This document shows, piece by piece, positions 15,994 through 36,868 of a stretch of DNA of 64,000 nucleotides. The DNA is taken from the IMG/VR virus record IMGVR_UViG_3300045999_009829; one strand, given 5' to 3'. The translations under genes were made by a program, and so were the position numbers. The notes beneath the pieces were generated by a model. That model did no database searches, had not been told where the DNA came from, and saw nothing but the letters and a program-made list of their open reading frames with translations. Positions within the stretch are counted from its first letter, which is position 1, and each line of letters begins with the position of its first letter. The stretch is from a virus.

Positions 15994-16281
15994 GTCGGTT
16001 GATTCTGTTTCTAGGCTCAACCGTAAGCCCAAGAGATTACGCCGCTAAGCGAGTCTCAACAAAGCCGTTATCGTTGGCGTTTGTGTTGGTTTGTTGCGTT
16101 GGGTAGCTTCCGCACCATTGCCTACTTCGACCCTTACTGTCATCAGTCGATCCTGTTTCCGCCCCAAAGGAAAACTGTGACGTATCATCACTGACAGAGG
16201 TCACAGCCGTGTTATTGGTGGAGCGGCGGAGTGCTGCCCTCCGGTCCTGTCTGACCTATTTGGTCGCTATCATCAGCAACA
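15994..16281 (-). ncRNA. ssrA: Two-piece circularly permuted tmRNA
   Basis: T-arm plus CCGCTCC-ACCA end at 16216, 50-nt intervening segment, then GGGGCGG 5' end at 16165 (G3.U70); tag frame ANDNGFVETRLAA* at 16037-16078. Confidence 0.92.
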
Positions 16282-16284
16282 AGG

Positions 16285-16292
16285 TATTTATA
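16285..16292 (-). promoter_or_regulatory. Late promoter upstream of the tmRNA
   Basis: TATAAATA. Confidence 0.7.
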
Positions 16293-16300
16293 CACCAGTC

Positions 16301-16612
16301 CTAGTCGAAGTCAACCTTTTCCGACACAAGAGTTCGAGTCTCAGTGACCTTAGTGACTTGAATCGTCTCGAGCTTTGGAGAGTAATAGCTGGGCCCGACC
16401 TTTGATCTTGCTACGCTTATAGCCTTCTCTTTGGTGTCGAACTTGTATGCCAGCGTCTCGTTGGTGATCCACTGAAAGATGTTGTACTGGTAGTCGATGG
16501 AGACCCAAGCTGGTACATTCTCCTCCATCATCACGTACCCGGCTGAGTTCTCAGACTGATTCATCCGGACCGATACCGTGTAGTACTCTGTCTTGATCTC
16601 GTTAACTGTCAT
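16301..16612 (-). CDS. Hypothetical protein
   Basis: 103-aa ORF. Confidence 0.6.
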   Translation of the reverse strand: MTVNEIKTEYYTVSVRMNQSENSAGYVMMEENVPAWVSIDYQYNIFQWITNETLAYKFDTKEKAISVARSKVGPSYYSPKLETIQVTKVTETRTLVSEKVDFD

Positions 16613-16794
16613 CGGTTCTTGATGAGCTTGTAGAGTTCTGGGGCTACAACAAAGGCTCCGAACACGAGGAAGGGCGCTGCAAGCATGAACAGTGACAGAG
16701 CAGCGCCGAAGATGAATCCTAGACCGATACCGAGTAAGATGTAGCCAAACGCTAGTATCAAAAGTCCGATGATGAGTCTTTCCTGATCAGGCAT
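16609..16794 (-). CDS. Small two-TM membrane protein
   Basis: Hydrophobic 61-aa ORF. Confidence 0.6.
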   Translation of the reverse strand: MPDQERLIIGLLILAFGYILLGIGLGFIFGAALSLFMLAAPFLVFGAFVVAPELYKLIKNR

Positions 16795-17107
16795 CTAACT
16801 CTCCCAGGGGATCAAAAATGTTGACTGTCTCTTCCTTTCTGGGTTCCATGATGACTCTACTGGGGTCATATCCAGTGTAGTACCAGAAGGCTATTCTAAG
16901 TGCGGACAGAGTCTTGAACTGTATGGAGGCGCCCTTGGCGATCATGATTGCCGCCGGCTCTCCGGAGCTCTTTCGTACGTAGTCAATGAACTCCTCGTCG
17001 AAGAGGCACTGAGTTTCCAGTCGATTGATGTCACGAAGCAATGCCTCGCAAGTCTCTTTGTGCTTCTTGTTGAGGAACGGAACGTCAGAGAACCTTATGT
17101 AAGCCAT
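16787..17107 (-). CDS. Hypothetical protein
   Basis: 106-aa ORF; SD lies inside a 12-bp hairpin. Confidence 0.6.
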   Translation of the reverse strand: MAYIRFSDVPFLNKKHKETCEALLRDINRLETQCLFDEEFIDYVRKSSGEPAAIMIAKGASIQFKTLSALRIAFWYYTGYDPSRVIMEPRKEETVNIFDPLGELDA

Positions 17108-17172
17108 CAGTCTCTCCCGTCAGTGTGTGTGCCTATTTAATGAGACGGGAGAGACGCGGTTCAGTGCACCGC

Positions 17173-18216
17173 CTACGTCCAGATTGATTGACCGTTCGGA
17201 CTACGAATACGATCTCTCCAAGCAGCTCGGATCAGCTCATGAGTCGCAGCAGGGAGCGGAATGTACTCTAGACGAGAGGCAATGTCACTGCCCTGACGGT
17301 ATGCCCAATCAAAGAAGCGCATCGTATTCAAGCTGCCCGCCACCTTGTCCGCCGTCGGGTTGGTCGGCAACAGGATGTAGGTGGGCGAGGTGATCGGCCA
17401 CACCGTCGCACCGTTCAGGTCGATGGTGTCGGCGGCGAAGTTCGGCACATTCCAATCGGCCGCCGCGGCGGTCGCCAGGAAGGCAGGCGGCTCCGGGCGC
17501 ACGAAGTTGCCGGACTTGTTCCGGATCTGCGTGGTCGGCATCCGGTTCACCACGGCATAGGCGTTCTCGATGTAGCCGATCGTGCCCGGGGTGTTGCGGA
17601 TGATGTTCGACACGCCTTCATTGCCGCGCGCGCCATTGCCCACCGGCCAGCGCACGGAGGTCCCGGCACCCGGACCATTGCGCCACTCTTGGGAGATGCG
17701 CGAGAGATAGGTCGTCCACACCCAGGTCGTGCCCGAGCCATCGGCACGGTAGGCGACCGAAAGCGGCAGGTTCGGGATACGGATGTCGCGGTTCAGCTCG
17801 GCGATCCGCGGATCGTTCCAGCGGGTGATCCGGCCGAAGAAGATGTCGGTGATGATTTCCGGCGTCAGGCGCAGCGCATTGTCCGCCACACCCGGCAGGT
17901 TCGCGCTCAGCACGACCGAGCCCATGACGGTCGGGAACTGCAGAAGGTTGCGCTCGGCGAGCTGCGCCGTGGTCAGCGGCGCGTCAGAGGCGCCGAAATC
18001 GACCGTACGCGCGGTGATCTGGTTGATGCCGCCGCCGGAGCCGATTGACTGGTAGTTCAGCTGCACGCTGATGGCTTCTCGTGCGGCCTGCGCCCAGCGC
18101 TCATAGAGCGGACGGGGGAAGGTGGCGCCGGCGCCGGTGATCGTAAGTGTTTGTGCTGATAGACTGGGGGATGCTAGTAGAGCGGCACCAGTCAGCATTA
18201 ATGTTCGTCGGTCCAT
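17173..18216 (-). CDS. pstS: Phosphate ABC transporter substrate-binding protein
   Basis: GAGATFP, YQSIGSGGG, VDFGASD, RADGSGTT, GNEGV, IGYIE. Confidence 0.97.
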   Translation of the reverse strand: MDRRTLMLTGAALLASPSLSAQTLTITGAGATFPRPLYERWAQAAREAISVQLNYQSIGSGGGINQITARTVDFGASDAPLTTAQLAERNLLQFPTVMGSVVLSANLPGVADNALRLTPEIITDIFFGRITRWNDPRIAELNRDIRIPNLPLSVAYRADGSGTTWVWTTYLSRISQEWRNGPGAGTSVRWPVGNGARGNEGVSNIIRNTPGTIGYIENAYAVVNRMPTTQIRNKSGNFVRPEPPAFLATAAAADWNVPNFAADTIDLNGATVWPITSPTYILLPTNPTADKVAGSLNTMRFFDWAYRQGSDIASRLEYIPLPAATHELIRAAWRDRIRSPNGQSIWT

Positions 18217-18256
18217 AATATCTCCTTTTCATGATGTACAAATCACATTTACAGAA

Positions 18257-18328
18257 AGCGGATGGCCAGACTCGAACTGGTCTTCTACGGCTTGGAAGGC
18301 CGGGGCACAACCCTTATACCACACCCGC
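18257..18328 (-). tRNA. tRNA-Gly(TCC)
   Basis: GCGGGTG acceptor, CT-TCC-AA, T arm; no encoded CCA. Confidence 0.9.
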
Positions 18329-18334
18329 AAAACT

Positions 18335-18565
18335 AGCTGAGCCTCACGCCCTTGGCTCGAATGTTGTCTGGCATTACCAATGAGCGACGTCCGCTATGCG
18401 GTCCGTATCCAGATCAAACATACTAGATGACGTTCTACTTTATCAGGTATGTCGCTCCCCCGTAGGCGAACTTACCACGCCCATTATTCAGCACCACTGA
18501 GCCTGGACCCTTACGAACGCCTGACCACGATTGTAGAACTACGTCTCCTGTCACCTAGTATACCA
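18335..18565 (-). ncRNA. Putative ~230-nt pseudoknotted RNA
   Basis: Nested helices of 12, 7 and 5 bp plus a crossing GAGCGAC/GTCGCTC helix; no ORF in the track. Confidence 0.55.
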
Positions 18566-18576
18566 CTACTTAGTGT

Positions 18577-18939
18577 TCACCACTTATAGGCCCGCCGGAT
18601 AATTTCGACAAGCTCCGGGTCCCGGTACTCATAGTTATCCGGGATCATGAGATTGAACACCGGCGTATTGAGACCGCAATCAGCCAGCAGCTTATTAACC
18701 ACCATCTCATGGTCAAGCTGGACGCACACAATCTCATCCGCCCAAGTCAGCAGCACCCGATCCAGAGGGACCAGTGCATAGTCGTGGATACCACAAGCCC
18801 GGGTGTTGTAGTTATACGGGTCCTGTGAAAGCACCCACGCGATGGTAGGAGACCGCAGAAGGCCCGCCGAACAAACCGTCAGAACCTTCTTGTATGAACC
18901 CTGGTGCGGGTTCTTGCAGTTGTGCAGCCGGTTCATCAT
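18577..18939 (-). CDS. Low-molecular-weight protein-tyrosine-phosphatase-like protein
   Basis: P-loop C-SAGLL-RS (CX5R), WADEI, IPDNY. Confidence 0.88.
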   Translation of the reverse strand: MMNRLHNCKNPHQGSYKKVLTVCSAGLLRSPTIAWVLSQDPYNYNTRACGIHDYALVPLDRVLLTWADEIVCVQLDHEMVVNKLLADCGLNTPVFNLMIPDNYEYRDPELVEIIRRAYKW

Positions 18940-18968
18940 GTATGCATGCCTTTCTTCTGGAATACTTG

Positions 18969-19065
18969 TCGAAGACCAGGGCCCTGGAACCCATGGGTGG
19001 TTTTATCGGTTCTACCACCAGTCACCTTGAAGCCGTGTTCCCCATTAGCAACGGCTAGTCTTCGA
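18969..19065 (-). ncRNA. Putative ~97-nt three-helix RNA
   Basis: TCGAAGACT/GGTCTTCGA closes AGCCGT/ACGGCT and GGTGGT/ACCACC. Confidence 0.5.
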
Positions 19066-19068
19066 ACT

Positions 19069-19144
19069 TGGTGAGAGTGTGGTGGAGTCGAACCACCTCC
19101 GGCGTAGGCCACGTCTCCGCTCAGCTCCCAGCTCTTACACTCTC
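19069..19144 (-). ncRNA. tRNA-like RNA lacking a canonical anticodon arm
   Basis: 8-bp acceptor GAGAGTGT/ACACTCTC, T arm GGTGG-TTCGACT-CCACC, ACCA end. Confidence 0.75.
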
Positions 19145-19150
19145 AAACTT

Positions 19151-19245
19151 TGGTAGTCGTGACAGGACTCGAACCTGCAACCGCGCACCAATCTAGTGCA
19201 TACGAGAGGTATAAGCTCTCCGCTCTGCCATTGAGCTACACGACC
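19151..19245 (-). tRNA. tRNA-Ile(TAT) with long variable arm
   Basis: GAGAG-CT-TAT-AC-CTCTC anticodon arm; ~25-nt extra arm; CCA. Confidence 0.85.
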
Positions 19246-19250
19246 AAAAA

Positions 19251-19327
19251 TGGTGCCCGCAGAGAGATTTGAACTCCCGACCTACTGATTACAAATCAGT
19301 TGCTGCTACCAGCTGAGCTATACGGGC
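19251..19327 (-). tRNA. tRNA-Thr(TGT)
   Basis: Cloverleaf, TT-TGT-AA, CCA. Confidence 0.95.
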
Positions 19328-19330
19328 TAG

Positions 19331-19484
19331 TTGGCTCGGGCTAACACCACCACGTTCGCAGTAGCGCTTGATCTCTTATCGCACCCCCGAGCAGCACGAT
19401 CGTATCCTACTACTAACCCGAACCGCTATCTCTGCTGTTACACTAACGATCCGGGATCTCAGCCCAAATAGGCGTAAGCTGAAG
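19331..19484 (-). ncRNA. Putative ~155-nt structured RNA between tRNA-Asn and tRNA-Thr
   Basis: 14-bp helix GGTTCGGGTTAGTA/TGTTAGCCCGAGCC; crossing GATCGT/ACGATC. Confidence 0.5.
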
Positions 19485-19488
19485 ATTT

Positions 19489-19564
19489 TGGCTGGCCTGG
19501 CAGGGCTCGAACCTGCGACCCGGTGATTAACAGTCACCTGCTCTACCAGCTGAGCTACAGACCA
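19489..19564 (-). tRNA. tRNA-Asn(GTT)
   Basis: Cloverleaf, CT-GTT-AA, GCCA. Confidence 0.95.
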
Positions 19565-19578
19565 CAACCCATTATATA

Positions 19579-19809
19579 TCAGGCAGCCTTGGTGCGGCGC
19601 TTGGCCTTCTCGACCAGTCGGTAGAAGTTCTTGGACTGACCCTTGGAGTTGGTGCGCTCGACAAGCTCGACCTGGAAGCCGTTCTCGCGGAGACGGTAAA
19701 TCAGATGGTACGGCTGGCTGATGCGGAAGCGTGCAGCAATCTGCTTTGCGGTCAGTTCAGTGCCCGAGCGCATCGTGGTCAGAAGACGGTTATAAGCGGT
19801 AGTTTCCAT
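19579..19809 (-). CDS. Winged helix-turn-helix protein
   Basis: LTAKQIAARF...IYRLRENGF...YRL. Confidence 0.75.
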   Translation of the reverse strand: METTAYNRLLTTMRSGTELTAKQIAARFRISQPYHLIYRLRENGFQVELVERTNSKGQSKNFYRLVEKAKRRTKAA

Positions 19810-19820
19810 GTTATATCTCC

Positions 19821-20009
19821 TTAGAGGATGTCAATGAGTCGGCCGTTCTCATCAACGGCACGAACTCGGTGGTCCGGCAGCATTCGAGCCGCCGCTTCCA
19901 TGTAAGACTGAACCAGTTGAGCCGAGGAGCCAGCGCCGTTACCGACTCGGTTGATAGTCGACCAGTCGGAGTACTTGTTGGCAACTTGGATCAGTAGATC
20001 GCCGTTCAT
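19821..20009 (-). CDS. Hypothetical protein
   Basis: 62 aa, RVRAVDENGRLIDIL; promoter at 20044-20070. Confidence 0.65.
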   Translation of the reverse strand: MNGDLLIQVANKYSDWSTINRVGNGAGSSAQLVQSYMEAAARMLPDHRVRAVDENGRLIDIL

Positions 20010-20113
20010 GTGGAAGTTGGTTCCTTTTGGTTAACTCTTATGTTATACCATGGGTGGGGTATAAAGTCAACCATAGTTTTGTAACAGAGTGCTACAGCAG
20101 GTTTGTATACAAA

Positions 20114-20554
20114 CTAGATTGTATACTCGAAGTTCACGGTGAACTCATTCTCCTGCAGTAGCTTGGCACCGTTTGAGAGGTGAAAGTCTCTAGCCATGTC
20201 CGTCTTGGGACTCAGAGTGACTGCTCGAGTCACACGAGGCTTGTTCCAGCGGATATGGGTGAGCGCTTGGGTGATGATCTTTCGCCCAGAGCCCTTCTGG
20301 AAGGACCAGACCGAGTAGAAGCAAGCCACGTTGAAGCTCGACCACTCAGACAGAACGTCGGCTTCGGTCTTGGGTACCGCACCGAGATAGGCGCCGCACA
20401 GCACCGCCTTCACGCTTATCTCCTCATGGAGCACAAAGCACTCTCGGTTTGCCGCTATTCGCTGCCAATGAGTTATGTTAGGCCTGACTGGATCGGTCTG
20501 AAGTACCTGCGACCAGTGCTCACTGTGTGTCCTGACTGCGGTCAATTGCTCCAT
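20114..20554 (-). CDS. GNAT-fold-like hypothetical protein
   Basis: FYSVWSFQKGSGRKII, VTLSPKTDMARDFHLSNGA. Confidence 0.65.
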   Translation of the reverse strand: MEQLTAVRTHSEHWSQVLQTDPVRPNITHWQRIAANRECFVLHEEISVKAVLCGAYLGAVPKTEADVLSEWSSFNVACFYSVWSFQKGSGRKIITQALTHIRWNKPRVTRAVTLSPKTDMARDFHLSNGAKLLQENEFTVNFEYTI

Positions 20555-20596
20555 GATGTCACCCCAAGTTTGACTTGCAGTACTATATAACCTACC

Positions 20597-20794: not shown

Positions 20795-20795
20795 G

Positions 20796-23748: not shown

Positions 23749-23805
23749 CCTATTGACTTTATTCTCAGATCGGATATAATCCACAAGCAATCAACGGAGA
23801 CAGAC

Positions 23806-24288
23806 ATGACCAAGCTCATCAAGCAGGCTAACCGCCCCGGGCTCTACGTCTCGGACATCATCAACGAGCGCTACCAGATCCTCGAGTCCGAGGTGTTCAA
23901 GTCCTCGTACTTCGTGTACGACCTGGTCAAGGACGACATGATCCGCTCCAACGACGGCAGCTGCAAGTACTTCGACTCGCTCGACTCGGCAATGGCAGTC
24001 GCTACCGGTCTGGGCATGGTCGCTAAGGCCGTCAAGGTCAAGCAGCCCAAGCCCGAGAAGATCAAGGAGCCCAAGGCGGCTGGCAAGCGCGACGAACTTC
24101 AGGCAGCCGGCCGGCCGAAGCCCAAGAAGGGCTCCGCCAACGGCACGATCATCGAGCTCATCAAGACGACTCAGATGACTGACGCCGAGATCTCTGCCGA
24201 GGTCATGCGGCTCTTCCCCGACTGCAAGACCTGCAAGCCCTACGACGTCAAGTACCGCCGTCGCAAGGTCGAGGCGGGCGCCCTTTGA
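23806..24288 (+). CDS. Basic hypothetical early protein (possible DNA binding)
   Basis: 160 aa, Lys-rich linker; promoter TTGACT 23753 / TATAAT 23775. Confidence 0.7.
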   Translation: MTKLIKQANRPGLYVSDIINERYQILESEVFKSSYFVYDLVKDDMIRSNDGSCKYFDSLDSAMAVATGLGMVAKAVKVKQPKPEKIKEPKAAGKRDELQAAGRPKPKKGSANGTIIELIKTTQMTDAEISAEVMRLFPDCKTCKPYDVKYRRRKVEAGAL

Positions 24289-24743
24289 TCACTCGCTACG
24301 GCGCCCCTAATAGGGCCAGTCCGGAACTGGCAGTCGAGGCTCTCGGGTTCTTTACCGAGAGCCTCATGAGCAAGCGTCTGTGCGCCAACCTCAAGATCAG
24401 GCTGTTCTTCAAGGACGACCTGCTCAAGAAGCACAGGCTTGAAGCTCAGTGCGCCTGGGAGGATGACAACCTCCGGCCCCGCGAGTTTGCCGTCACGGTC
24501 GACAGCGGGCTCACCAGGCATCGCATGCTGCTTTCACTGGCTCACGAGGCGGTGCACATCAAGCAGTACGCGACTGGCGAGCTGAGGTACTTCATCCGCG
24601 GGTGCGCCTGCAGGTGGCGGGGCAAGCCCATCAACGAGGATCGTATCCCCTACACCGAGCTCCCGTGGGAGATTGAGGCCTGGGGCCGCGAGCGTGAACT
24701 GTTTGAGTCATTCTTAGAGACAAGGAAGAGAGGCCGTGCCTAA
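24285..24743 (+). CDS. HExxH zinc metallopeptidase-like protein
   Basis: LAHEAVHIKQY...PWEIEA. Confidence 0.8.
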   Translation: MITRYGAPNRASPELAVEALGFFTESLMSKRLCANLKIRLFFKDDLLKKHRLEAQCAWEDDNLRPREFAVTVDSGLTRHRMLLSLAHEAVHIKQYATGELRYFIRGCACRWRGKPINEDRIPYTELPWEIEAWGRERELFESFLETRKRGRA

Positions 24744-24867
24744 AAGGAATCCTGTGGCCAGAGCTCTGGCCTCGCGACTCTTCGCCAAGAGAGTCGTGAA
24801 ATCCAAAAAGATCTATAGCCGCAAGGCAAAAAGAAAGGGCGCCGATTTGGCGCCCTTTTCGCATTAG
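24736..24867 (+). CDS. ArfA-like basic peptide (43 aa)
   Basis: Not in ORF track: MPKRNPVARALASRLFAKRVVKSKKIYSRKAKRKGADLAPFSH; aligns by eye to E. coli ArfA residues 14-45. Confidence 0.6.
   Translation: MPKRNPVARALASRLFAKRVVKSKKIYSRKAKRKGADLAPFSH
24828..24859. terminator. Bidirectional intrinsic terminator at the strand convergence point
   Basis: AAAAAG-AAAGGGCGCC-GATTT-GGCGCCCTTTT. Confidence 0.8.
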
Positions 24868-25202
24868 TCGAGGTCCTTGTTTCGTGACCCTGGTGTGTCT
24901 ACCATCAGGTAGCGAGCCTTTTCGTTGACTCGATGTCGAGCCTCCAGGATTTCACGGACCTCGAAGAGTCTCTGGACACAGGCCCTGATGGTCCGCCTGG
25001 TGACCTCGTCGTTGGTTCCGTCCTCTAGATCTATGAGAGCGGCATGGAGGTTGTTGTCCACCGACCGGTCGACCAAAATTACCATGCCGTCGTTGTCTTT
25101 TTCCTCAGGCTCTGGGTAAAGCAGATTTGCTATCCGATCGAGCTCAGCCTCTCGGATCACCTTGGGCTCCGGCTGGAACCACTTCATGAACAATTCAATC
25201 AC
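24864..25202 (-). CDS. Hypothetical protein
   Basis: 112-aa ORF. Confidence 0.65.
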   Translation of the reverse strand: MIELFMKWFQPEPKVIREAELDRIANLLYPEPEEKDNDGMVILVDRSVDNNLHAALIDLEDGTNDEVTRRTIRACVQRLFEVREILEARHRVNEKARYLMVDTPGSRNKDLD

Positions 25203-25602
25203 GCGTCGCTTTCTTCTTTCCTATCGTGTACTTTGATTCCAAAGTCCAGTCAGACTTCTCCTTGTAGGCAATGATCTTGACGCTGGACAGCTTTGCCACC
25301 GAGTCGGAGAATGCCGACTTGTTGACAATCTCAAGCAGTCCCCACTCCTCAAGCAGGAAAGCGATAGCGTTGCGCCTGGATCTGTCCTCGTCGGTGAAGT
25401 CAGATGGCTTACCGTCGAGCTGAAACAGCTCCTTGAAGTGCACGATGTAGTACTTTCCGCGCTTGTGAAGGATGTGACAGGACTGAAAGAGCTTCTTTTC
25501 CTTCTTTGAGGCAATCCCGATGCGGGTTAGGGTCTCTTTTATCTTGAGGAAGTCTTCTTCTTTCTTAAGCGAGACCTCTAGAAAGGTGTCTGTGATGGTC
25601 AT
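25195..25602 (-). CDS. regA: Translational repressor RegA
   Basis: DFLKIKETLTRIGIA, QSCHILHKRGKYYIVHFKELF, KYTIG. Confidence 0.97.
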   Translation of the reverse strand: MTITDTFLEVSLKKEEDFLKIKETLTRIGIASKKEKKLFQSCHILHKRGKYYIVHFKELFQLDGKPSDFTDEDRSRRNAIAFLLEEWGLLEIVNKSAFSDSVAKLSSVKIIAYKEKSDWTLESKYTIGKKKATRD

Positions 25603-27079: not shown

Positions 27080-27171
27080 AAGTCACGGGTCCTTTCATGA
27101 TAAATAGCGGGAAGGTGGATGCTTGCAACAACCACCCTCCCTAAGCACAATAACCTTTGGAGGAGGTTACC

Positions 27172-27729
27172 ATGCCATACATTATATATCGGATTACCAA
27201 CAAGGTCAACAGTAAGTCTTACGTAGGTAAGACCACCAAAAGCTTACAAGAGCGCTTCCAAAAACACGTATATAACTGTAAAGCTGGAAGCAACACATAT
27301 CTCTACAAAGCCATGAGAAGGTACGGTATAGAAACCTTCACTGCAGAAGTTCTTGAAGAAACAACATACGATCAGCTTAATGATCAAGAGAGCTTTTGGA
27401 TCTTGAAGTTATCACCTGAATACAACATGACTTCAGGTGGAGATGGCGGCGATACGTCGACTTCACCGAACTTCAAGAAAAGCATGGAACTTTATCATAA
27501 AAACAAGCCCAGAGAAGAGTATGCCACATATGGTATGCTAGGAAAGCCCTGCAAAACAAAAGGGCAACCAAACAGAAAACTGCATTGCCCAGTAATTTGT
27601 GAGGGCAAGATGTATGAATCAGTGGGCTCAGCCCAGAATGCTTACCCGGGCATTAATGTCAGAAAACGTCTAGACAATCCAAAATACCCAGAGTTTTACA
27701 GACTACGAGAAAAAACTTGTAGAAAGTAG
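27172..27729 (+). mobile_element. Free-standing GIY-YIG homing endonuclease (Seg-like)
   Basis: IIYRITN...YVGKT...RFQKH...E...YNMTSGGDG; AT-rich; opposite strand to neighbours. Confidence 0.88.
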
Positions 27730-28951: not shown

Positions 28952-29797
28952 TCACTTCTTCTTCTTGAGCATTCCAGTGTCGGCAGTAGCGGGGGCGCCG
29001 ATCTGAGCCAAGTCAATCAGTGACCCGCCGAAGATGTAAGAGCCGACATGCTGCAGCTTCATCCATGGGCAGTACCAGATCTTGCCCTCGATCTCGATAA
29101 GCTTCTGGCAGAACCAGTAGTCCTCAGACAGGTAGCGCTTCGACTTGGGATCAATTTCAGCCTGGAAGAACTGCATGATCTCACGGGTACCGTCGAAGTG
29201 CTCGGTGCGGACGTGGTCAGGCTTGTAGCTGTACTGGGGATAGGCTTGCTGGAACTTCTCGAAAGCGCTGCGGCGAGTCATCATGAAGCCCGTGCCGACC
29301 TCGGACACCTCGACTGGCTGGTCCACTCGGATAGAGCCAGAGCCCGACTTGGGGTTGAACACGAAGTCACCGACGTAGCGCTCGAGGACGTTGGGATCCT
29401 CATCTGCCATGCCCTTGTCGACTGCCAGCTTGATCTTCTCCCACGAGATGCACTTCTTGGGGTAGGGACCTGCGAGCACGTCGTACTCGGTGTCGTCGCC
29501 CTGTAGAGCAAGCATCGCCAGAACGTCACGGGGATCGAAGCCGATGTCAGAGTCGATGAACATGAGGTGGGTGCAGTTCGAGCGCATGAACTCGTCGACG
29601 ATGTAGTTGCGTGCACGAGTGATGAGCGACTCGTTGAACAGGAAGTAAGAGCGGAGCTCGACGCCGTGGTTGGTGCACATGGCGGTAAGGTCAGCGACTG
29701 ACTTCGTGAACATGCCGGCGCACTGACCGCCATACATCGGAACGCCTAGAAAGAGCTTGCGCTTGCGAAGTTCGTCGATGGAGATGGAGATTTCCAT
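28952..29797 (-). CDS. GT-A fold glycosyltransferase-like protein
   Basis: ESLITRARN, MFIDSDIGF (DxD), GTGFM, YLSEDYWFC. Confidence 0.75.
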   Translation of the reverse strand: MEISISIDELRKRKLFLGVPMYGGQCAGMFTKSVADLTAMCTNHGVELRSYFLFNESLITRARNYIVDEFMRSNCTHLMFIDSDIGFDPRDVLAMLALQGDDTEYDVLAGPYPKKCISWEKIKLAVDKGMADEDPNVLERYVGDFVFNPKSGSGSIRVDQPVEVSEVGTGFMMTRRSAFEKFQQAYPQYSYKPDHVRTEHFDGTREIMQFFQAEIDPKSKRYLSEDYWFCQKLIEIEGKIWYCPWMKLQHVGSYIFGGSLIDLAQIGAPATADTGMLKKKK

Positions 29798-30106
29798 TCA
29801 CTTGTCCTTTTCATGGTGTGTCATGTGGTGGTTCATGGCAAGCACGGTGTAGTGGAGGACCTTCATCAGATCGTCCTTGTTGTGTCCGTTCTTCTTGCCG
29901 TATCGGGATGCGTACTTGATGATGTTTCCGATGTAGAAGCCCTCGGAGTGCCCGGCTGAAATGATCAAGTCTTGAGCTTGAACCTTGTCGCCGTAGTGCG
30001 AGCCGTATGTCTTTCTGATGTACTGGTGCAGCTCGTCTAGGATGTGACCTTCGTTGTACTTGAACTTGATCACGTCCTCCTTGGGGTATTTATTCACGTC
30101 ATTCAT
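29798..30106 (-). CDS. DUF3310 / T7 gp1.7-like nucleotide-kinase-family protein
   Basis: SHY...GFYIGNIIKYASRYGKKNG...DLMKVLHY. Confidence 0.75.
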   Translation of the reverse strand: MNDVNKYPKEDVIKFKYNEGHILDELHQYIRKTYGSHYGDKVQAQDLIISAGHSEGFYIGNIIKYASRYGKKNGHNKDDLMKVLHYTVLAMNHHMTHHEKDK

Positions 30107-30113
30107 GGGGTCC

Positions 30114-30953
30114 TCACGTATTGCTGAACTTGATGTTCTGCTCTATCTCGCGCTTGTCCTTCTCGTAGGGTGCACGGTAGTTGTTGTTGGCTCGAATGGC
30201 TTCCTTGAGGACAGACATCTCAGAGCCAAGAGAGTTGGCAAATGCAACCAGGGCAGCCGTGTCCTTAGGGAAGCAAGCGCCGCCGAAGCCTCGCTTGCCG
30301 TCAAAGCCGGGGACGGTGGTGTGTGACCTGCCGACTCTATCATCAGCAGTGATGGCGCCGACCACCTTGCCGAAGTTACCGCCGTACGCGTTGACGGTAT
30401 CATAGAACTGGTTGAACCACAGAACCTTGGTGGCAAGGAAGCTGTTGATCCCGTACTTTACAAAGCTGGCGTCCACCGGAGTCATGTGATATGTAGGGCA
30501 CGGCTTGCACAGGCTGTAGTACTTGTAGAGGTACTCCAGGGCGGCGGTTGCCGATGGCTCGCCGCCGAACACGTGCATGAACGGGTTCACGAAGTCCTCG
30601 TTGGCGCTCTTCTCGGTGAGGAACTCCGGGTTGTAGACCATGCGATTGATCTTGTCGCCGCGGAAGAGCCTGTGGATGATGTTCGGCGTTACAGTCGACT
30701 TGATGATGATGTACCCGCTGACCTTCTCGAGCAGGTGCTTGACAACCGACTCGATGATGGATGAGTCGATCGACCCGTCCTCACCCATGGGCGTGGGCAC
30801 GCACACGAAGGTGAAGTCGATAGGCTTGTCCTCGAGATCCTTTACGGTCGTTCCCTGCTTGGGGTCAATGATGTGCTTGTTGCACATGATGTCAGGGAAT
30901 CCATAGTCAACAGCCTTGCCGACAAAGCCGTGACCTACAATTGCAATGTCCAT
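30114..30953 (-). CDS. ugd: UDP-glucose 6-dehydrogenase (short form)
   Basis: GHGFVG, CVPTP, IKSTV, NPEFL, KYGINSFLATK, GFGGACFPKD. Confidence 0.9.
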   Translation of the reverse strand: MDIAIVGHGFVGKAVDYGFPDIMCNKHIIDPKQGTTVKDLEDKPIDFTFVCVPTPMGEDGSIDSSIIESVVKHLLEKVSGYIIIKSTVTPNIIHRLFRGDKINRMVYNPEFLTEKSANEDFVNPFMHVFGGEPSATAALEYLYKYYSLCKPCPTYHMTPVDASFVKYGINSFLATKVLWFNQFYDTVNAYGGNFGKVVGAITADDRVGRSHTTVPGFDGKRGFGGACFPKDTAALVAFANSLGSEMSVLKEAIRANNNYRAPYEKDKREIEQNIKFSNT

Positions 30954-31907
30954 TCAGTTCACTCCATAATATGACTTGTACCACTCTGCAAATTTAGCCA
31001 CGCCCTCGGGGATGGATACGGACGGCTTCCAGCCGAGAGCCTGAAGCTTTGTGGTGTCCGACCAGGTCTCCAGGGTGTCCGCAGGGTGACGAGGTAGCAT
31101 GTTCTTCTTGAGCTCTCGACCGAAGTTTTTCTCGATCTCTGCAATGAAGTCCATGAGGTTGACCTGCTGACCACGACCGATGTTGAAGATCTCGTGCTTC
31201 GGGTTGTCGGTGATCATGGCACGGTCAATGATGATCTTGATGCCGGCGACGATGTCGTCCACGTACGTGAAGTCACGCTTCATGTCACCGTAGTTGAACA
31301 CGTCGACTGGTCGATCTTGAATTGCTGCCTCTGCAAACTGGAACAGAGCCATGTCAGGTCGACCGTATGGACCATAGACGGTGAAGAAGCGGAGACCGAT
31401 GGTCCGATCCAACTTTGAGGTCATGAACTGACACTCGTTGGACCGCTTGGTGTAGCCGTATGCATTCAGTTGGTGACCGGTGGGCTCGTCTTCCTTCCAA
31501 GGAAGCGGATTGCCCGCCATCACGCACGACGTAGAGGCATACACGACTGTATTTACACCGAGCGACTCACAGACCTCGATCAGGTTCTGAGTGCCGACAA
31601 TGTTGTTCTCGATGTACTCTAGCGTGTTGTTGTACGAGTGGCGGACACCGACCGACGCAGCAAGGTGCACGACTGCATCTGGCTTGTGAGCCTCGATGAA
31701 CCAGTTGAACGAGTCCTTCTTGCGGAGATCGGCTGTGACCACCGGCGCACCGAGTTGGTCCAGAATATGCGCTCGGTGCTTCTTGAGCCTCACGTCGTAG
31801 TAGGAACTGAAGTTGTCAAGTCCGACAACCTCGTGTCCAGCATCTACCAGAGCTCGTGTGAGGTGGAAGCCGATGAAGCCAGCGGCGCCGGTGATCAGGA
31901 TCTTCAT
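30954..31907 (-). CDS. NAD-dependent epimerase, UDP-glucuronate 4-epimerase type
   Basis: TGAAGFIG, YYDVRLK, YGYTK, LRFFTVYGPYGRPDMA, RDFTYVDDI. Confidence 0.9.
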   Translation of the reverse strand: MKILITGAAGFIGFHLTRALVDAGHEVVGLDNFSSYYDVRLKKHRAHILDQLGAPVVTADLRKKDSFNWFIEAHKPDAVVHLAASVGVRHSYNNTLEYIENNIVGTQNLIEVCESLGVNTVVYASTSCVMAGNPLPWKEDEPTGHQLNAYGYTKRSNECQFMTSKLDRTIGLRFFTVYGPYGRPDMALFQFAEAAIQDRPVDVFNYGDMKRDFTYVDDIVAGIKIIIDRAMITDNPKHEIFNIGRGQQVNLMDFIAEIEKNFGRELKKNMLPRHPADTLETWSDTTKLQALGWKPSVSIPEGVAKFAEWYKSYYGVN

Positions 31908-32857
31908 CAGTAGTTCTTCCGACCGCTGGGGTAGCGATCCGCAGAGTACTCCATGTCCTCATAGGCTTCAGGAGTGTCCCACTGACGGATGAGCTTCATG
32001 CCGTAGTTGTCAGTCTTGTTCAAGATCGTCACGTCCTTCTTGAGGATCAGTGGATTCAGTCGAGCCTGCTGACCGTGCTTGTTGACGATCGCCTCTAGAT
32101 CCACATGATGATGCACTCTACCATACCTTTCCTGTAAAGTCACCACATCTGGATGCATCTCGACAAGCATCTGAGACTTCTTGAGTGAGGCGTCCTCTGC
32201 GTAGTTATTGTAGATCTCAGAGGTGTTGCCGCCCTTGACCGTGCCAGTTCTTGCCTTGCCACACAAGAAGGAGTAGATCAGCATGGTGCAGAGACCCTCC
32301 TTGAGCACTCGGATGGACAGGTCGACGTCCTCGTTGTACCGACCACGCCACTTGTGAGGGCAGTCGTTGTCGATCAGGAAGCAAGACATGATCCGCGTGT
32401 TCAGGATGTATGGCGGATATGGGTAGTCGTCAACACAGAAGAACTTGTACTGGAGACCGGCGAGGGCTACATTCTCGAAGCGATCCACAAAGTCTTCTGT
32501 GGCACGGAAGCAGGCAGAGCCACGCTCGATCCGATAGCGCTTGTTCTGGTGAAAGCGCCAGAACTCGAAGATGTTGTCGTCCATGAGCCAGTGGCGCTTG
32601 AAGCCGTTAGCCTGCGAGTGTTCCCAGCACCAGTTGCGGGCGGGACCAGAGCCCTTGCCGTGGTTGCTGAACGGTAGAGTCAGCACCTTCTTGGGGTCAA
32701 TGACCGCAGCATAGTTTTCGTACTCCTGCGGCTCGACCGCAATGTAGTACGGGACGCCCATCCGCTCTAGAGCTCGAGAAGTGTGACGAGTCTCCCACCG
32801 ACCCTTGCTGATGATGTAGATGGGGTAGCGAGTGGTGAAGGCATCACTCATCTTCAA
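31907..32857 (-). CDS. GREB1/TET-associated-type GT-A glycosyltransferase (putative DNA base modifier)
   Basis: YPIYIISKGR, VEPQE, ARN, HWLMDDNI, YNEDVDLS, KGGNT. Confidence 0.75.
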   Translation of the reverse strand: MKMSDAFTTRYPIYIISKGRWETRHTSRALERMGVPYYIAVEPQEYENYAAVIDPKKVLTLPFSNHGKGSGPARNWCWEHSQANGFKRHWLMDDNIFEFWRFHQNKRYRIERGSACFRATEDFVDRFENVALAGLQYKFFCVDDYPYPPYILNTRIMSCFLIDNDCPHKWRGRYNEDVDLSIRVLKEGLCTMLIYSFLCGKARTGTVKGGNTSEIYNNYAEDASLKKSQMLVEMHPDVVTLQERYGRVHHHVDLEAIVNKHGQQARLNPLILKKDVTILNKTDNYGMKLIRQWDTPEAYEDMEYSADRYPSGRKNY

Positions 32858-33113
32858 CGATCCTGTTCATGTTGTTCTTCTCACGACCCTTGTCTGGGTA
32901 CCAGACCACGGCAGTCTTCTCGGTCAGGCTGTATCCAAGTAGTTCGGCAAACGCCTGACGGTCTTCCATGGTCTTGAACTTCACCTTGATCTGCTTGTAT
33001 GGAGACAGGTCACCGGTGTTGAACGCCGGCATGCCCGCCGCATACCACTGTAGGTATGGGTTGCGCCACTCGTTCTGTAGGTCTTCTACTGTAGATGTAT
33101 TTCCAAATAGCAT
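32844..33113 (-). CDS. Small glycosyltransferase-associated protein (paralog A)
   Basis: GMPAF...IKVKFKTMEDRQAFAELLG...TAVVWYP. Confidence 0.7.
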   Translation of the reverse strand: MLFGNTSTVEDLQNEWRNPYLQWYAAGMPAFNTGDLSPYKQIKVKFKTMEDRQAFAELLGYSLTEKTAVVWYPDKGREKNNMNRIVEDE

Positions 33114-33114
33114 G

Positions 33115-33468
33115 TCAGTCTCCCATGAATCCTAGGATGCCGTCATCGGTTTCCTTGGAGAACACAAGCACCGAGGTCTTGGGTCCGATGGGCTGTCCGA
33201 TGGCTTTCATGAACTCGTTGAGTTCACCCTGACACGTGAAGTTCACGTACAGGTTCTGCCAGTCTTCCGGAAACTCTGGGTCAATTGGCTTCGGCTTGAT
33301 GTAGGGCTTGTGCTCTTCTTGCTCGCCAAGAAACGAAGACAGACCCGTTGGGGTTGTCTCCTTGGCTTTATAACCCACTAGGTCTTCATAGTCAACTGAA
33401 GTATCGCGGACGTTTGTCACAAGTTCATCTCCAAGTAGATAGGGTATACCTGTTGAATTGGTCAACAA
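33115..33468 (-). CDS. Small glycosyltransferase-associated protein (paralog B)
   Basis: LYVNFTCQGELNEFMKAIGQPIGPKTSVLVF; start uncertain. Confidence 0.65.
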   Translation of the reverse strand: MLTNSTGIPYLLGDELVTNVRDTSVDYEDLVGYKAKETTPTGLSSFLGEQEEHKPYIKPKPIDPEFPEDWQNLYVNFTCQGELNEFMKAIGQPIGPKTSVLVFSKETDDGILGFMGD

Positions 33469-33886
33469 TCAATGAATCCGAGATCGTGTCAAGCAGTCGA
33501 GCATTCTCTTTCTTAAAGAGGTGCATCGTTCGGCCGTCTCGAGTGCGAAGTGATCGTGTCTCCCGCTTGTCCTTGGGAAAATCGTACAGGTTGACCACGT
33601 TCCCGTTGTATTTAGACGGCGTCTCGACGAAGATCAAGATGTCGACGTCACGGCACTTGGCGATCTGTCCTGGTTTGACGGTGAACGCGTTTTCCTTGTG
33701 CCACAGCTGTTGAGTCTTTACCTCACACGTGTGCTTTCCTAGGCCTATGACCATGTCCTTCTTCTGGTCAAATAGGTCAATGGACTCCTCCACATGGAGG
33801 CCTAGGTTACGAAAGTAGCGAGCTACCAGTCTCTCACCAAGGTCGCCTGTCTTGACCTTCATCTGATCTGCGTCTAGCACCGTCAT
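33425..33886 (-). CDS. PD-(D/E)xK nuclease-like protein
   Basis: GDLGERLV...KDM...CEVKT. Confidence 0.7.
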   Translation of the reverse strand: MTVLDADQMKVKTGDLGERLVARYFRNLGLHVEESIDLFDQKKDMVIGLGKHTCEVKTQQLWHKENAFTVKPGQIAKCRDVDILIFVETPSKYNGNVVNLYDFPKDKRETRSLRTRDGRTMHLFKKENARLLDTISDSLIVDQFNRYTLSTWR

Positions 33887-34347
33887 GTCCTCAGATAGGT
33901 GTGGATCTTTCTGATCTGATCAAGACGAACCTCAAAGTCGTTGAGCTGTCTTGTCTTACCAGATGGATGGTACAACTTTAGATGGGGAAAGTCAACCACT
34001 TGTAAAGCTTTGCTCACAAAGCCGCCAAGTGCAATCACCTTCTTCTTGTAGAAGGGAAGAAGTCTCTTCCTGAGAGAGGTGAGATCCACCAGCTTCAAGT
34101 CTGGCGGTGCATTGACCTCGTGGGGTATGACGTTCTGGAAGTCGAACTCATAGCACCGTGCCGCATGCATCCAGTCGATGACTGTCTGGACGGTGTCCTG
34201 CTTGTTGTACTTGCTGCTTCGCTCCTCCACCGTCTTAGTGGAGGGACAGAAGCCGACCACGATCACGCCGTCACTGAAAGCGTGTCGTGGGTCGATCATC
34301 TTCATGTACGCTACAGAAGCCTCTCGAGTATAAAGAGACTCGTGCAC
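33883..34347 (-). CDS. Uracil-DNA-glycosylase-fold protein
   Basis: VVGFCPS, VIALGGFVSKAL, LYHPSG. Confidence 0.65.
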   Translation of the reverse strand: MHESLYTREASVAYMKMIDPRHAFSDGVIVVGFCPSTKTVEERSSKYNKQDTVQTVIDWMHAARCYEFDFQNVIPHEVNAPPDLKLVDLTSLRKRLLPFYKKKVIALGGFVSKALQVVDFPHLKLYHPSGKTRQLNDFEVRLDQIRKIHTYLRT

Positions 34348-34358
34348 GGTAGTTCTCC

Positions 34359-34733
34359 TTAGCTGAAAACGGCGCCCTTGGTATCGGGAGGCGTCCAGCC
34401 CTCGGGTTTCAGGATCTTTCCGTCCTCACGGCTGATCGGCTTACCGTCAACTAGCTTTGCCATGTTGGACCGGTGGACCTCAGCAAACACTCGATCAAGT
34501 GGAATGCCGTAGGAGACCGCCGTGCCGCACGCAATGTAGATGATGTCGGCAAGTGCATCAGCAATCTCTACGATGTCGTTCTCCCACTCCGCGTCGAGGT
34601 ACTCATTAACCTCTTCACGCAGCAGATTTACCCTGAGAGTACGTTCCTCAATGGGAGGCAACTCAGGCTTTGTGCCCACGTTGAGACCGAAGGCGACCTG
34701 GAAGTCCTTGACGTCGTTGTACATATCAGTCAT
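34359..34733 (-). CDS. MazG/PRA-PH-like NTP pyrophosphohydrolase
   Basis: LREEVNE, IADALADIIY, EVHRSNMAK, DGKILKP. Confidence 0.9.
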   Translation of the reverse strand: MTDMYNDVKDFQVAFGLNVGTKPELPPIEERTLRVNLLREEVNEYLDAEWENDIVEIADALADIIYIACGTAVSYGIPLDRVFAEVHRSNMAKLVDGKPISREDGKILKPEGWTPPDTKGAVFS

Positions 34734-34944
34734 TGAGAATGTTCCCACGCACCAGGCAGATTCCCGAGTTGTTGTTTGGGATCCAAGTGCCACCTGCATC
34801 GATACACTTATTCATCGAAGCATAGTAATGTCGGTTGCCATTCATGGTGCCGATCGTAACGCCGATAATCAGAATCGACATAATGATTGTACCGCAGATA
34901 AAGAACAGGACTTCTGTCCCGTGTTCCCGTAAAAGTTCCTTCAT
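34726..34944 (-). CDS. Small membrane protein
   Basis: One TM helix; KCIDAGGTW. Confidence 0.6.
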   Translation of the reverse strand: MKELLREHGTEVLFFICGTIIMSILIIGVTIGTMNGNRHYYASMNKCIDAGGTWIPNNNSGICLVRGNILND

Positions 34945-34945
34945 A

Positions 34946-35482
34946 TCACATGATCCATTCAGGGGGTTGACGATTGGTCCAACTGTGCATCCGAGCCTTG
35001 CCTACCTTGTAGTAGTTTCGGTAGTTGGTCACCGGATCCTCACTGATGATGTACTGCTTGTCCATAGCGCAGGGCATCTCAGTCATGTCGTAGTCCCTCA
35101 GATTCTGGGGAGGGGACTGTAGGCAATAAGCAAGGTCAAAGCACTTATGTACCTTGCCGCCGTAGCGGTGAGAGTACTCGTCGTTGAGTGCATAGAAGTG
35201 CTCCACTAGCCAGAGGTAGTTCTCTACAGAAGTTCGGGTCCAGACCGCGGACGGATGGTTCATGTGCGTCGCTTGATACACGATGCTGTCACGGCCGTCG
35301 TCGAGAATGAACCGCTTGGCATTCCGTCCAGTCTTGGTCTTACCGAGAGTCATGCGGCCGTCAAGCATCCGATGGGCGGTCGACAAGAGCTGTGCAGTTT
35401 CCAAAATCATTTTTACTACATGACGGTCGACCATCCACTGTGCAGCTTGGCGAGGACAGCGGTCAATATAGAAAATGTTAAT
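34946..35482 (-). CDS. Pyrimidine-dimer DNA glycosylase (DenV-like family), probable ATT start
   Basis: (M)NIFYID...DRHVVKMILETAQLLST...HMNHPS...YRNYY. Confidence 0.85.
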   Translation of the reverse strand: MNIFYIDRCPRQAAQWMVDRHVVKMILETAQLLSTAHRMLDGRMTLGKTKTGRNAKRFILDDGRDSIVYQATHMNHPSAVWTRTSVENYLWLVEHFYALNDEYSHRYGGKVHKCFDLAYCLQSPPQNLRDYDMTEMPCAMDKQYIISEDPVTNYRNYYKVGKARMHSWTNRQPPEWIM

Positions 35483-36191
35483 TTTTTGTCTCCTTTGAGC
35501 GACAATTGTCAAAGTGATAGCGTTTCATCGCAAACGCACCCCCACTTTTACCACAATGTGGACAACTTGTCAACTCTTGTTTGAAGCCTTTCTCTCTTAC
35601 AGGAGAGTAGGCCTCATTCCAACCTTTTGCTTGTCTAAGAAGGCCTTCAGGTGATATTGACTCTCTTGATCTTTTACCATGTTCTTTAAGCTCTTCGGCT
35701 GTCATACTAGAAAATCTTTTGGCTTGAGCTTCACTTTTTAACCTTCTGGAATGCTCACTTTCCTTCATACCTCTTTTGCTTTTGTTTGCAGATTCGGTCA
35801 ACATCCGTTTTTGTTCCATGGTCATCCTTGATCTTTGCTCCTTAAGACTATTAGACAGCTTAAGAAGTGTTTCAGGTGAACATTCACGATCCACACAACC
35901 TTCTCCACCAGCCGTCATGTTATAGCCGAACTCGTACGAGTTTGAATTGTAGTGCCTTATCCACTTTTGCTCTAACTCATAGACATGTTCTGGCGCACAT
36001 GTTTCCAATAGACTGACATCAAAGTTTTCCACACCGTGCTTTTTCATTGATTGATACAGACGACGACCTTCAAGATTGGGCCCTCTGCTATTGCGAATGT
36101 GTTCCTTAAATCTGGATTCTATTGAGTGTTTTGTTATGCCGACATACTTTTTGCTGTTCAGTCGATTTTCTATCAGATAAACAAACGGCAT
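35478..36191 (-). mobile_element. Free-standing GIY-YIG homing endonuclease with NUMOD-like repeats and a C-terminal Zn knuckle
   Basis: FVYLIEN...YVGIT...RFKEH...GYNMTAGGEG; CPHCGK; AT-rich. Confidence 0.88.
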
Positions 36192-36251
36192 GTGAATCTC
36201 CCATACTTGACCACATGCTTATTTATCTTTACGACATGCTTGACGGCGTTA

Positions 36252-36365
36252 TTACTTGTCCGCGTGATAGCCGAGATGGAGCAGCCAGACAAGGATGACT
36301 CCTATGTGAGCCCAAAAGCCGGCTTCCAAGATGCTGAGTAAGAGAAATGCAATTAAGAGGGTCAT
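36252..36365 (-). CDS. 37-aa membrane peptide
   Basis: MTLLIAFLLLSILEAGFWAHIGVILVWLLHLGYHADK; ATGA overlap with the def-like stop. Confidence 0.45.
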   Translation of the reverse strand: MTLLIAFLLLSILEAGFWAHIGVILVWLLHLGYHADK

Positions 36366-36868
36366 CGCTTCCACTTCCTGAATGCTTGAGCTCGATGGAT
36401 CGGGTTGGCCTTCGAGTAGAAGTGCTCGCCGTTTAGGAAGTCCATGCAGTGCTGGAAAGTCCTAGCGGTTAGACCCGTGAAGGTCTCCGTCCTGGTCTGC
36501 CCGTTCGGCGTAGAGAAGCGGACCTTGACGTGCTGAGGGCGCTTGATCTTTACAAGCAGACCTGGATACGACATGGAGGTTTCCTCCAGCCTTATCTGCT
36601 CCTCGCTGGGCATCACGATCCTAGGATTGAAGCAGACAAAGTTCTCGGGTGCTCCACGCATTGCAAACACGCGAAGATTGATCCCAACCTGAGGTGCAGC
36701 AAGGCATACGCCGTTGTAGTCGTACATCGTCTTGACCAGTCTCTGAGCTAGATCAAGTGGGTCAAGCGGAGAGGATTGAAAGTTGAACTGTTCACAGATT
36801 GCCAGCTTCGCTAATTGACCTGGCCCTAGTATCGGCATGTTGTTCTCCATTCTATTGAACCTCTTCAA
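36362..36868 (-). CDS. def: Peptide deformylase homologue with inactivated catalytic motifs
   Basis: GVCLAAPQVG (cf. GxGLAAxQ), ETSMSYPG (cf. EGCLS), QHCMDFLNG (cf. QHExDHLxG). Confidence 0.85.
   Translation of the reverse strand: MKRFNRMENNMPILGPGQLAKLAICEQFNFQSSPLDPLDLAQRLVKTMYDYNGVCLAAPQVGINLRVFAMRGAPENFVCFNPRIVMPSEEQIRLEETSMSYPGLLVKIKRPQHVKVRFSTPNGQTRTETFTGLTARTFQHCMDFLNGEHFYSKANPIHRAQAFRKWKR

Follow-up and report, generated by a model that had tools for sequence, protein, structure and literature searches.

The window analyzed here is a 64,000-nt stretch of viral DNA that corresponds to bases 38924–102923 of the 107,845-bp IMG/VR virus record IMGVR_UViG_3300045999_009829, which is estimated to be 63% complete. 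It carries two elements of interest for ribosome rescue: a gene for a 43-residue peptide with suggestive similarity to the rescue factor ArfA, whose reading frame contains a terminator-like hairpin ahead of its stop codon, and a two-piece (permuted) transfer-messenger RNA (tmRNA). An earlier sequence-only reading had joined both with several neighboring genes and RNAs into one ribosome-rescue and translation-protection system extending over ~21 kb (positions 15994–36868). The gene content of the window, which includes gp43 polymerase, UvsX, a gp41-like helicase, gp45, gp44, gp62, RegA, and a gp46-like SMC ATPase, is that of a T4-like myovirus, and the closest named relatives of the source are Stenotrophomonas phage DLP6 and Caulobacter phage Cr30. 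Identity in gp44 reaches 60.5% with DLP6, 57.9% with the Methylophilales Melnitz phages, and 53.2% with Pelagibacter phage Mosig, and the local gene order in Cr30 is as in the window; when phage records were searched by megablast with a 10-kb part of the window, only tRNAs matched. From the type of tmRNA, and from the hosts that other phages with the peptide infect, we guess that the host is an alphaproteobacterium. RNAs in the window were identified with Rfam and ARAGORN, and proteins through Pfam, PHROG, and PDB-sequence searches (Table 1).

Table 1. Features of the window, with positions counted from its first base; the two rescue-related elements are listed first.
Feature	Positions	Strand	Details
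ArfA-like peptide ORF, 43 aa	24736-24867	+	GTG start; last gene of an early-type operon
Hairpin GGGCGCC-GATTT-GGCGCCC followed by TTTT	24837-24855; T-run 24856-24859	+	Inside the peptide ORF
sigma70-like promoter TTGACT-16-TATAAT	23753-23780	+	11 of 12 consensus positions; precedes the three-gene operon
Operon gene 1, 160 aa	23806-24288	+	No Pfam or PHROG match
Operon gene 2, 152 aa (o152)	24285-24743	+	HEAVH motif; 3′ end extends into the beginning of the ArfA-like ORF
Permuted alpha-type tmRNA	15993-16333	-	Rfam; placed at 15946-16309 by ARAGORN
T4-type late promoter box TATAAATA	16285-16292	-	5 nt upstream of the tmRNA start
Outer-membrane beta-barrel gene	15479-15967	-	PF13505
PstS-like periplasmic binding protein gene	17173-18216	-	PF12849
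RegA translational repressor	25195-25602	-	PF01818, E = 3e-45
Deformylase-like protein	36362-36868	-	PF01327, 112.6 bits (cut-off 22.8)
Gly-UCC, Ile-UAU, Thr-UGU, and Asn-GUU tRNAs	18257-19564	-	ARAGORN and Rfam
Ile-called UAU tRNA	19151-19245	-	95 nt, long extra arm
Tyr, Leu, Lys, Arg, Pro, and Ser tRNAs	14290-15467	-	ARAGORN and Rfam; just outside 15994-36868
tRNA-like element	19069-19144	-	Fold: 8-bp acceptor stem, perfect T arm, encoded ACCA
Candidate structured RNAs	18335-18565; 19328-19491		z = -0.72 and -1.70 against shuffles
ORF at the window start	277-1284
Glycosyltransferase, epimerase/dehydratase, and dehydrogenase-like genes	28952-32857	-	Glycosyltransferase PF20691, E = 8e-49
GIY-YIG endonuclease gene	27157-27729	+	Inserted between gp44 and gp45
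GIY-YIG endonuclease gene	35478-36191	-
Hsp20 family small heat-shock protein gene	8311-8769	-
S-adenosylmethionine decarboxylase gene	13261-13632	-

The promoter of the peptide operon is kept upstream of the homologous operon at six other loci (L004–L007, L013, and L049). Homologues of the first operon gene occur at L013 and L049; at L014 it has a weak match on the opposite strand. The second gene, which adjoins the peptide gene at L009, L013, L014, L036, and L049, encodes a product assigned to PHROG families 10499 and 16532, both of unknown function, with a weak match (E = 0.068) to the putative metallopeptidase family DUF6782. Comparison of the peptide ORF in four relatives at 95% identity revealed nine changes, six of them synonymous third-position substitutions and three altering a residue (V to M, I to V, and P to L). 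This mostly synonymous pattern indicates that the frame is coding; because three of the synonymous changes fall upstream of an internal ATG, the GTG start is likewise supported.

An exhaustive phmmer search of 1.84 billion representatives yielded 11 true homologues of 37–71 aa with the consensus KRNPxAxxLxxxLFxKRVVKSKKxYxRK, which the core of the window peptide follows from the Arg onward (RNPxAxxLxxxLFxKRVVKSKKxYxRK). In PHROG, the peptide falls into the unannotated families 20887 (E = 7e-11) and 2701. Members come almost exclusively from phages: 51 loci were collected from IMG/VR, and cultured members infect Sinorhizobium (phages phiM12, gene 363, and phiM9, gene 038), Rhizobium, Agrobacterium, and Ochrobactrum, with weak matches in Acinetobacter phages. 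A cellular scan with family alignment A3, covering one genome for each of 185,579 species, returned only three matches. One of these lies on a 109,453-bp Faunimonas pinastri contig of the same length as the complete virus record G008, which has terminal repeats; with just three cellular matches, one of them apparently viral, a chromosomal origin of the family was rejected. As to the surroundings of the gene, phiM12 gene 363 (L064, positions 141169–147949 of its record) lies within ~3 kb of genes annotated as a CCA-adding-enzyme-like protein, a RelA/SpoT family protein, and a type 2 peptidyl-tRNA hydrolase (Pth2). At L032, L041, L039, and L037, the ArfA-like gene is found within 10 kb of large arrays of 12–23 tRNAs, as called by ARAGORN.

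Profile searches make kinship with ArfA suggestive, at scores that stay below threshold. The window peptide scores 23.7 bits against Pfam DUF7230 (PF23876; E = 5.3e-5, cut-off 27) and 12.3 bits against Pfam ArfA (PF03889; cut-off 25.5), and reaches neither cut-off. Each of the two models is matched by five of the 11 family members, with a best E-value of 1.2e-3 for ArfA and values of up to 1 for DUF7230. When a profile of the family was searched against 177,635 PDB sequences, ArfA chains came out on top (E = 0.022), with ArfA residues 13–49 aligned, a stretch that includes the conserved core (about residues 13–47) by which ArfA contacts the mRNA channel and RF2; a broader profile of 29 sequences (A4) again placed ArfA first (E = 0.08), without improving on this result. 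No paper mentioning DUF7230 was found in the literature. Complex prediction with the peptide family alignment and E. coli RF2, used as a stand-in from another host, gave scores of 0.00 and thus no verdict, and is counted neither way.

A second feature linking the peptide to rescue factors is the position of its hairpin. A terminator or hairpin ahead of the stop codon is the published design of both arfA and brfA (PMC8012679), and in the window the TAG stop (24865–24867) lies 9 nt past the stem. Under one fixed rule, by which a terminator-like site must end 3 nt or more ahead of the stop, such sites occur in 16 of 46 unique family ORFs and in 124 of the 3963 other 35–90-aa ORFs at the same loci, which corresponds to a background of 3.1% and an enrichment of ~11-fold (Fisher p = 8e-13, uncorrected for relatedness). 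Within the clade in which o152 and the peptide gene converge on regA, six different stems occupy one position relative to the peptide core: those of the window (5′ arm GGGCGCC), L009 (GGGGGA, stop 76 nt past the stem), L014 (GGGGAAGC, 20 nt), L036 (GAGGTAGTAGA, 67 nt), L013 (GAGGTCAG), and L049 (GGTCGGAGG), the stop codons of the last two also lying beyond the stem. The peptide tails encoded 3′ of the hairpin are unrelated among clade members; the varying stops and unconserved tails thus suggest that the region past the hairpin is untranslated. An unrelated subfamily (L040, L045, L046, L050, L053, L054, and L060) shares the element GGGGCGG-TCAAT-CCGCCCC-TTTCAT, with stops 54 to 231 nt past the peptide core. 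In phiM12, gene 363 carries ATCGCCGGG...CCCGGCGAT-AATTTTTT before its TGA, although its downstream neighbor has the same orientation and is not convergent.

Several observations weigh against a rescue function. The ArfA match lies under every curated threshold, the GKG of the ArfA KGKGS stretch is deleted (a three-residue gap), and the position equivalent to A18 of ArfA is occupied by Arg or Lys; in E. coli, the A18T substitution abolishes activation of RF2 by ArfA. Only four Ts follow the window hairpin on the plus strand, which leaves the efficiency of termination uncertain, and with a gap of 9 nt some transcripts could contain the stop codon. Roughly two-thirds of the family have no terminator before the stop, and one subfamily (L032, L041, L039, and L037) places the stop inside the 3′ arm of the hairpin. 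The hairpin of the clade is, in addition, a bidirectional terminator between convergent units, doubling in the window as the minus-strand terminator of the regA-side unit, and this role alone could account for its conservation. The sub-threshold score, the GKG and A18 changes, the members without such a terminator, and the double role of the hairpin would suit a small basic phage protein with some other role, such as nucleic-acid binding or mRNA-channel blocking, whose compact ORF by chance runs into a hairpin that is just the terminator of two converging units. We consider that explanation unlikely, if still credible, in view of several findings: ArfA ranks first in the PDB with two family profiles, intra-ORF terminators exceed the background ~11-fold, stops vary and tails are unconserved past the hairpin, and phiM12 has the design with no convergent neighbor.

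The second element, the tmRNA, is matched over the full length of two Rfam models, tmRNA_permuted (RF04321; 93.4 bits, gathering threshold 47, model positions 1–213) and alpha_tmRNA (RF01849; 89 bits, gathering threshold 50, model positions 1–355). Its pieces occur in permuted order: the acceptor piece, with the 3′ end CCGCUCC-ACCA, is followed by an intervening hairpin and then by the coding piece, which begins with GGGGCGG. Pairing of GGGGCGG with CCGCUCC gives G3:U70, the T arm is present, and the 3′ CCA is encoded. The tag called by ARAGORN (ANDNGFVETRLAA*) starts with Ala, ends in a hydrophobic degron (LAA), and is closed by a stop codon. The adjacent late promoter box is one of six in the window, against 0.37 expected, a number reached by none of 100 shuffles; in the relative G001 (L069), the same box stands 7 nt upstream of the tmRNA. 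The gene belongs to a variable tRNA island; the genes on its two sides, for an outer-membrane beta-barrel protein and a PstS-like protein, look like host-derived auxiliary genes. DLP6 likewise has a two-piece tmRNA (136.8 bits in a whole-record search), and a blastn search with the window tmRNA found nothing in the phage-record collection. Previously, ssrA was reported in 402 of 18,146 phage genomes, with 53 two-piece tmRNAs, and two-piece tmRNA was found in 17 of 47 Melnitz-cluster contigs (PMC9004378). The tmRNA of the window is real, but two-piece tmRNA in this group of T4-like phages has already been published.

Neither SmpB (PF01668) nor an RF-1/ArfB domain was matched in the 108-kb record, which is ~63% complete; with no smpB in the record, the phage tmRNA must therefore share the SmpB of its host. 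Such sharing would also suit a tmRNA that manipulates the host, either by competing for SmpB or by tagging host proteins to recycle their amino acids, as the Melnitz authors proposed for a related T4-like phage (PMC9004378). Mycobacteriophage DS6A provides a precedent of a kind, a tmRNA reduced to the tRNA-like domain that possibly inhibits trans-translation (PMC4131195). For the window, however, we regard host manipulation as improbable: a complete gene with a normal LAA tag and full model coverage fits a working tmRNA and not a decoy, and a late promoter suits the recycling of ribosomes when mRNA decay peaks.

Co-occurrence of the two elements was assessed through whole-record searches for the tmRNA and the peptide gene. 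Both are present in the record of the window, in G001, and in G015. These three belong to one clade, and the gene that flanks the tmRNA in the window (o106) has a homologue beside the tmRNA of G001; thus, the co-occurrences are not independent, and common descent suffices to explain them. The peptide gene occurs without a tmRNA in phiM12, phiM9, RHph_N34, OLIVR5, and Cr30 (a weak match), as well as in the IMG/VR genomes G004, G007, G008, and G009, each at least 95% complete. Conversely, DLP6, G014 (98% complete), and G017 have a tmRNA and no peptide gene. In an initial set of loci, which extended up to 10 kb on either side of the peptide genes, ARAGORN found no tmRNA.

Two further proteins had been assigned to the proposed system. 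RegA is encoded in the canonical gp45-gp44-gp62-regA block, with the same synteny in DLP6 and Cr30, and the deformylase-like gene adjoins gp46/47, again as in DLP6 and Cr30. In an alignment with deformylases of known structure and the orthologues from DLP6 and Cr30, the motifs of the window protein (GVCLAAPQ, ETSMS, and QHCMDF) depart from the canonical GxGxAAxQ, EGCxS, and HExxH: Gly is replaced by Cys in motif 1 and Cys by Ser in motif 2, and in motif 3 Glu is replaced by Cys and the second His by Phe. The syntenic orthologues in DLP6 and Cr30 are canonical (GxGL.., EGC(L/V)S, and QHExDH). The same three changes recur in almost every one of the 120 nearest 90%-identity clusters (57–94% identity), a handful being canonical; motif 2 reads EExS in these clusters, QHCMDFL(D/N)G is the commonest form of motif 3, and some of the contigs reach 160 kb. 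Retention of the substitutions across a large environmental clade speaks for a change of function and against decay. The description of the protein as catalytically dead is correct insofar as canonical motifs define activity, and the clade could represent either an enzyme with a rewired metal site or a non-catalytic protein that binds the ribosome, possibly at the exit site.

What the sequence-only reading had proposed was that tmRNA, ArfA-like peptide, RegA, dead deformylase, tRNAs, and a tRNA mimic form a single system protecting translation from abortive defences. Its parts were largely borne out one by one: the tmRNA is permuted and scores above the Rfam gathering thresholds, with a late box beside it; the ArfA-like peptide with a terminator before its stop exists at the sequence level, with a weak match to ArfA; RegA is confirmed by PF01818 and T4 synteny; and all three canonical deformylase motifs are replaced. 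The named parts, bar a ligase and several structured RNAs, indeed lie within ~21 kb. The proposed timing, with ArfA early and tmRNA late, agrees with the promoter motifs, which are both kept in relatives, and the neighbors of the peptide gene in phiM12 (the CCA-adding enzyme, RelA/SpoT protein, and Pth2 hydrolase) and on IMG/VR contigs with arrays of up to 23 tRNAs would be in keeping with such a system. Nevertheless, an integrated system appears highly doubtful. relatives without the tmRNA or without the peptide have RegA and the deformylase-like gene in conserved syntenic positions; G014 combines tmRNA and deformylase-like gene with no peptide gene; at least eight complete genomes have the peptide gene and no tmRNA; the three co-occurrences reflect descent within one clade; and no part is tied to a defence system. 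Two findings had been named as speaking against the proposal, independently distributed genes and knockouts without phenotype, and the first is what emerged here, the tmRNA and the ArfA-like gene being distributed largely independently. Beyond co-location, integration is unsupported, since the parts sit in modules with different histories; the positions and distribution of RegA, the deformylase-like gene, and the tmRNA therefore mark the 21-kb interval as a juxtaposition of modules. The sole founded functional link is the known feedback between tmRNA and ArfA, for which host tmRNA alone would suffice, and an anti-defence role is speculation.

The reading that we prefer, and whose chances we consider evenly poised, is that the phage may carry two separate accessories for rescuing ribosomes stalled at mRNA 3′ ends, the tmRNA and the ArfA-like peptide, which are not co-inherited and whose remaining neighbors are ordinary. 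The analysis shows the sequence features, how they are conserved, and where they occur; the steps from termination at the hairpin through tagging to ribosome binding and the recruitment of a release factor are inferred, as follows. The complete two-piece tmRNA, transcribed from its own late promoter, would use the SmpB and alanyl-tRNA synthetase of the host. Because the intrinsic terminator lies inside the reading frame of the peptide, most of the peptide transcripts would lack a stop codon, and their product would be tagged and destroyed as long as trans-translation, by the host tmRNA and later that of the phage, has spare capacity. The peptide would accumulate only once trans-translation is saturated; like ArfA and BrfA, it would then settle in the vacant mRNA channel and bring in a release factor. 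The tmRNA and the peptide would be tied to each other only via this known feedback logic, with RegA, the deformylase-like protein, and most tRNAs being ordinary occupants of the replication module and the tRNA island.

Extended to the whole family, this reading yields a more tentative proposal: peptides of PHROG families 20887 and 2701 might mediate release-factor-dependent rescue from deliberately stop-less mRNAs, sensing the saturation of trans-translation and supplying an ArfA-type pathway to hosts without one, including Alphaproteobacteria; in a few T4-like phages, they would be paired with a late tmRNA that switches the peptide off. To our knowledge, ArfA, BrfA, and ArfT have so far been regarded as chromosomal backups for tmRNA, and ArfA is limited to Gamma- and some Betaproteobacteria. 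If the proposal is true, viruses themselves tune ribosome rescue, an unannotated PHROG family acquires a function, and phiM12 and phiM9 on Sinorhizobium meliloti become cultured systems in which to follow trans-translation capacity during infection. The valuable part of the locus is the ArfA-like gene, together with the conserved placement of a terminator before its stop, which extends to an unannotated phage family, and the non-canonical deformylase-like clade constitutes a second, separate lead; the broad claim of an integrated 21-kb system should be dropped in its stated form.

The remaining RNAs of the interval lend themselves to a shorter account. ARAGORN calls ten tRNAs in the window, four inside positions 15994–36868 and six outside, so that the seven counted there by the sequence-only reading were too many. 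The length and long extra arm of the Ile-called tRNA are unusual for a tRNA of this specificity. The CCA-ended tRNA mimic of that reading exists as an element with an encoded ACCA, with weak support from tRNA models: ARAGORN makes no call, RF00005 does not match, and the tRNA-Sec model gives 26.6 bits (cut-off 47; E = 0.2). The element has no anticodon arm, and its third pair is G-C, so that the alanine identity pair of tmRNA is absent. Of the several structured RNAs also claimed, the two candidates examined gave folds no more stable than those of shuffles and matched nothing in Rfam. Nor was there a ligase signal for the supposed KxDG ligase-like protein at the window start, where searches of Pfam, PHROG, and PDB sequences linked the ORF to no ligase and no KxDG is seen in the translation.

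Other genes of the window are unrelated to rescue. Within the replication module, a TET-associated glycosyltransferase gene adjoins genes for an NAD-dependent epimerase/dehydratase and a UDP-glucose dehydrogenase-like protein; this set, whose gene order is retained at L004 and L005, probably encodes a DNA hypermodification pathway. The two GIY-YIG genes likely encode homing endonucleases, and genes for an Hsp20 family protein and an S-adenosylmethionine decarboxylase are also present.

Each of the elements discussed above has known counterparts. The phage deformylases of cyanophage S-SSM7 (3UWA) and Vibrio phage Vp16 (5MTC) belong to the same PF01327 fold family as the deformylase-like protein; unlike in these enzymes, the canonical metal ligands (Cys, His, and His) and the catalytic Glu are replaced in the window protein. 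Permuted alpha-type ssrA is shared with Alphaproteobacteria and with the marine Melnitz phages and pelagimyophages, the phage genes again residing in a T4-like genome. In contrast to Melnitz, no glutamine riboswitch is found in the window by Rfam. The promoters differ as well: an early one was inferred by the Melnitz authors (PMC9004378), and the tmRNA of the window follows a late-type TATAAATA box.

For the peptide, a phage gene with ArfA-domain similarity has been described in pelagiphage HTVC027P, whose gp30 is annotated as ArfA, has a reported PF03889 match, and is expressed in infection; the paper describes no non-stop design (PMC12753301). This protein did not surface in a tblastn search with the 43-aa peptide. 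BrfA (B. subtilis YqkK) is produced from a truncated mRNA, owing to a rho-independent terminator before the stop, and is controlled by trans-translation, and the same design is predicted in the phage (PMC8012679, PMC6881298). No sequence similarity to BrfA was detected, and BrfA, at 72 aa, is a chromosomal protein of the B. subtilis group. ArfA itself (E. coli YhdL, PF03889) is likewise small and basic, and shares with the phage peptide the alignable core N-x-I/V-x-x-x-L...L-F-x-x-R-V-x-K-x-K-K...Y-x-R-K. Its intra-ORF hairpin leads to a stop-less mRNA and to repression by tmRNA, as is predicted for the phage peptide. The phage hairpin resembles an intrinsic terminator, whereas that of arfA is an RNase III site; the phage peptide also lacks the hydrophobic C-terminal tail of ArfA. 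A further difference is that the peptide is encoded by phages, including those of Rhizobiales, which belong to a class without arfA. Indeed, arfA was found in none of 2376 alphaproteobacterial genomes (PMC11633108); thus, the phage would add to its host a rescue pathway that the host lacks.

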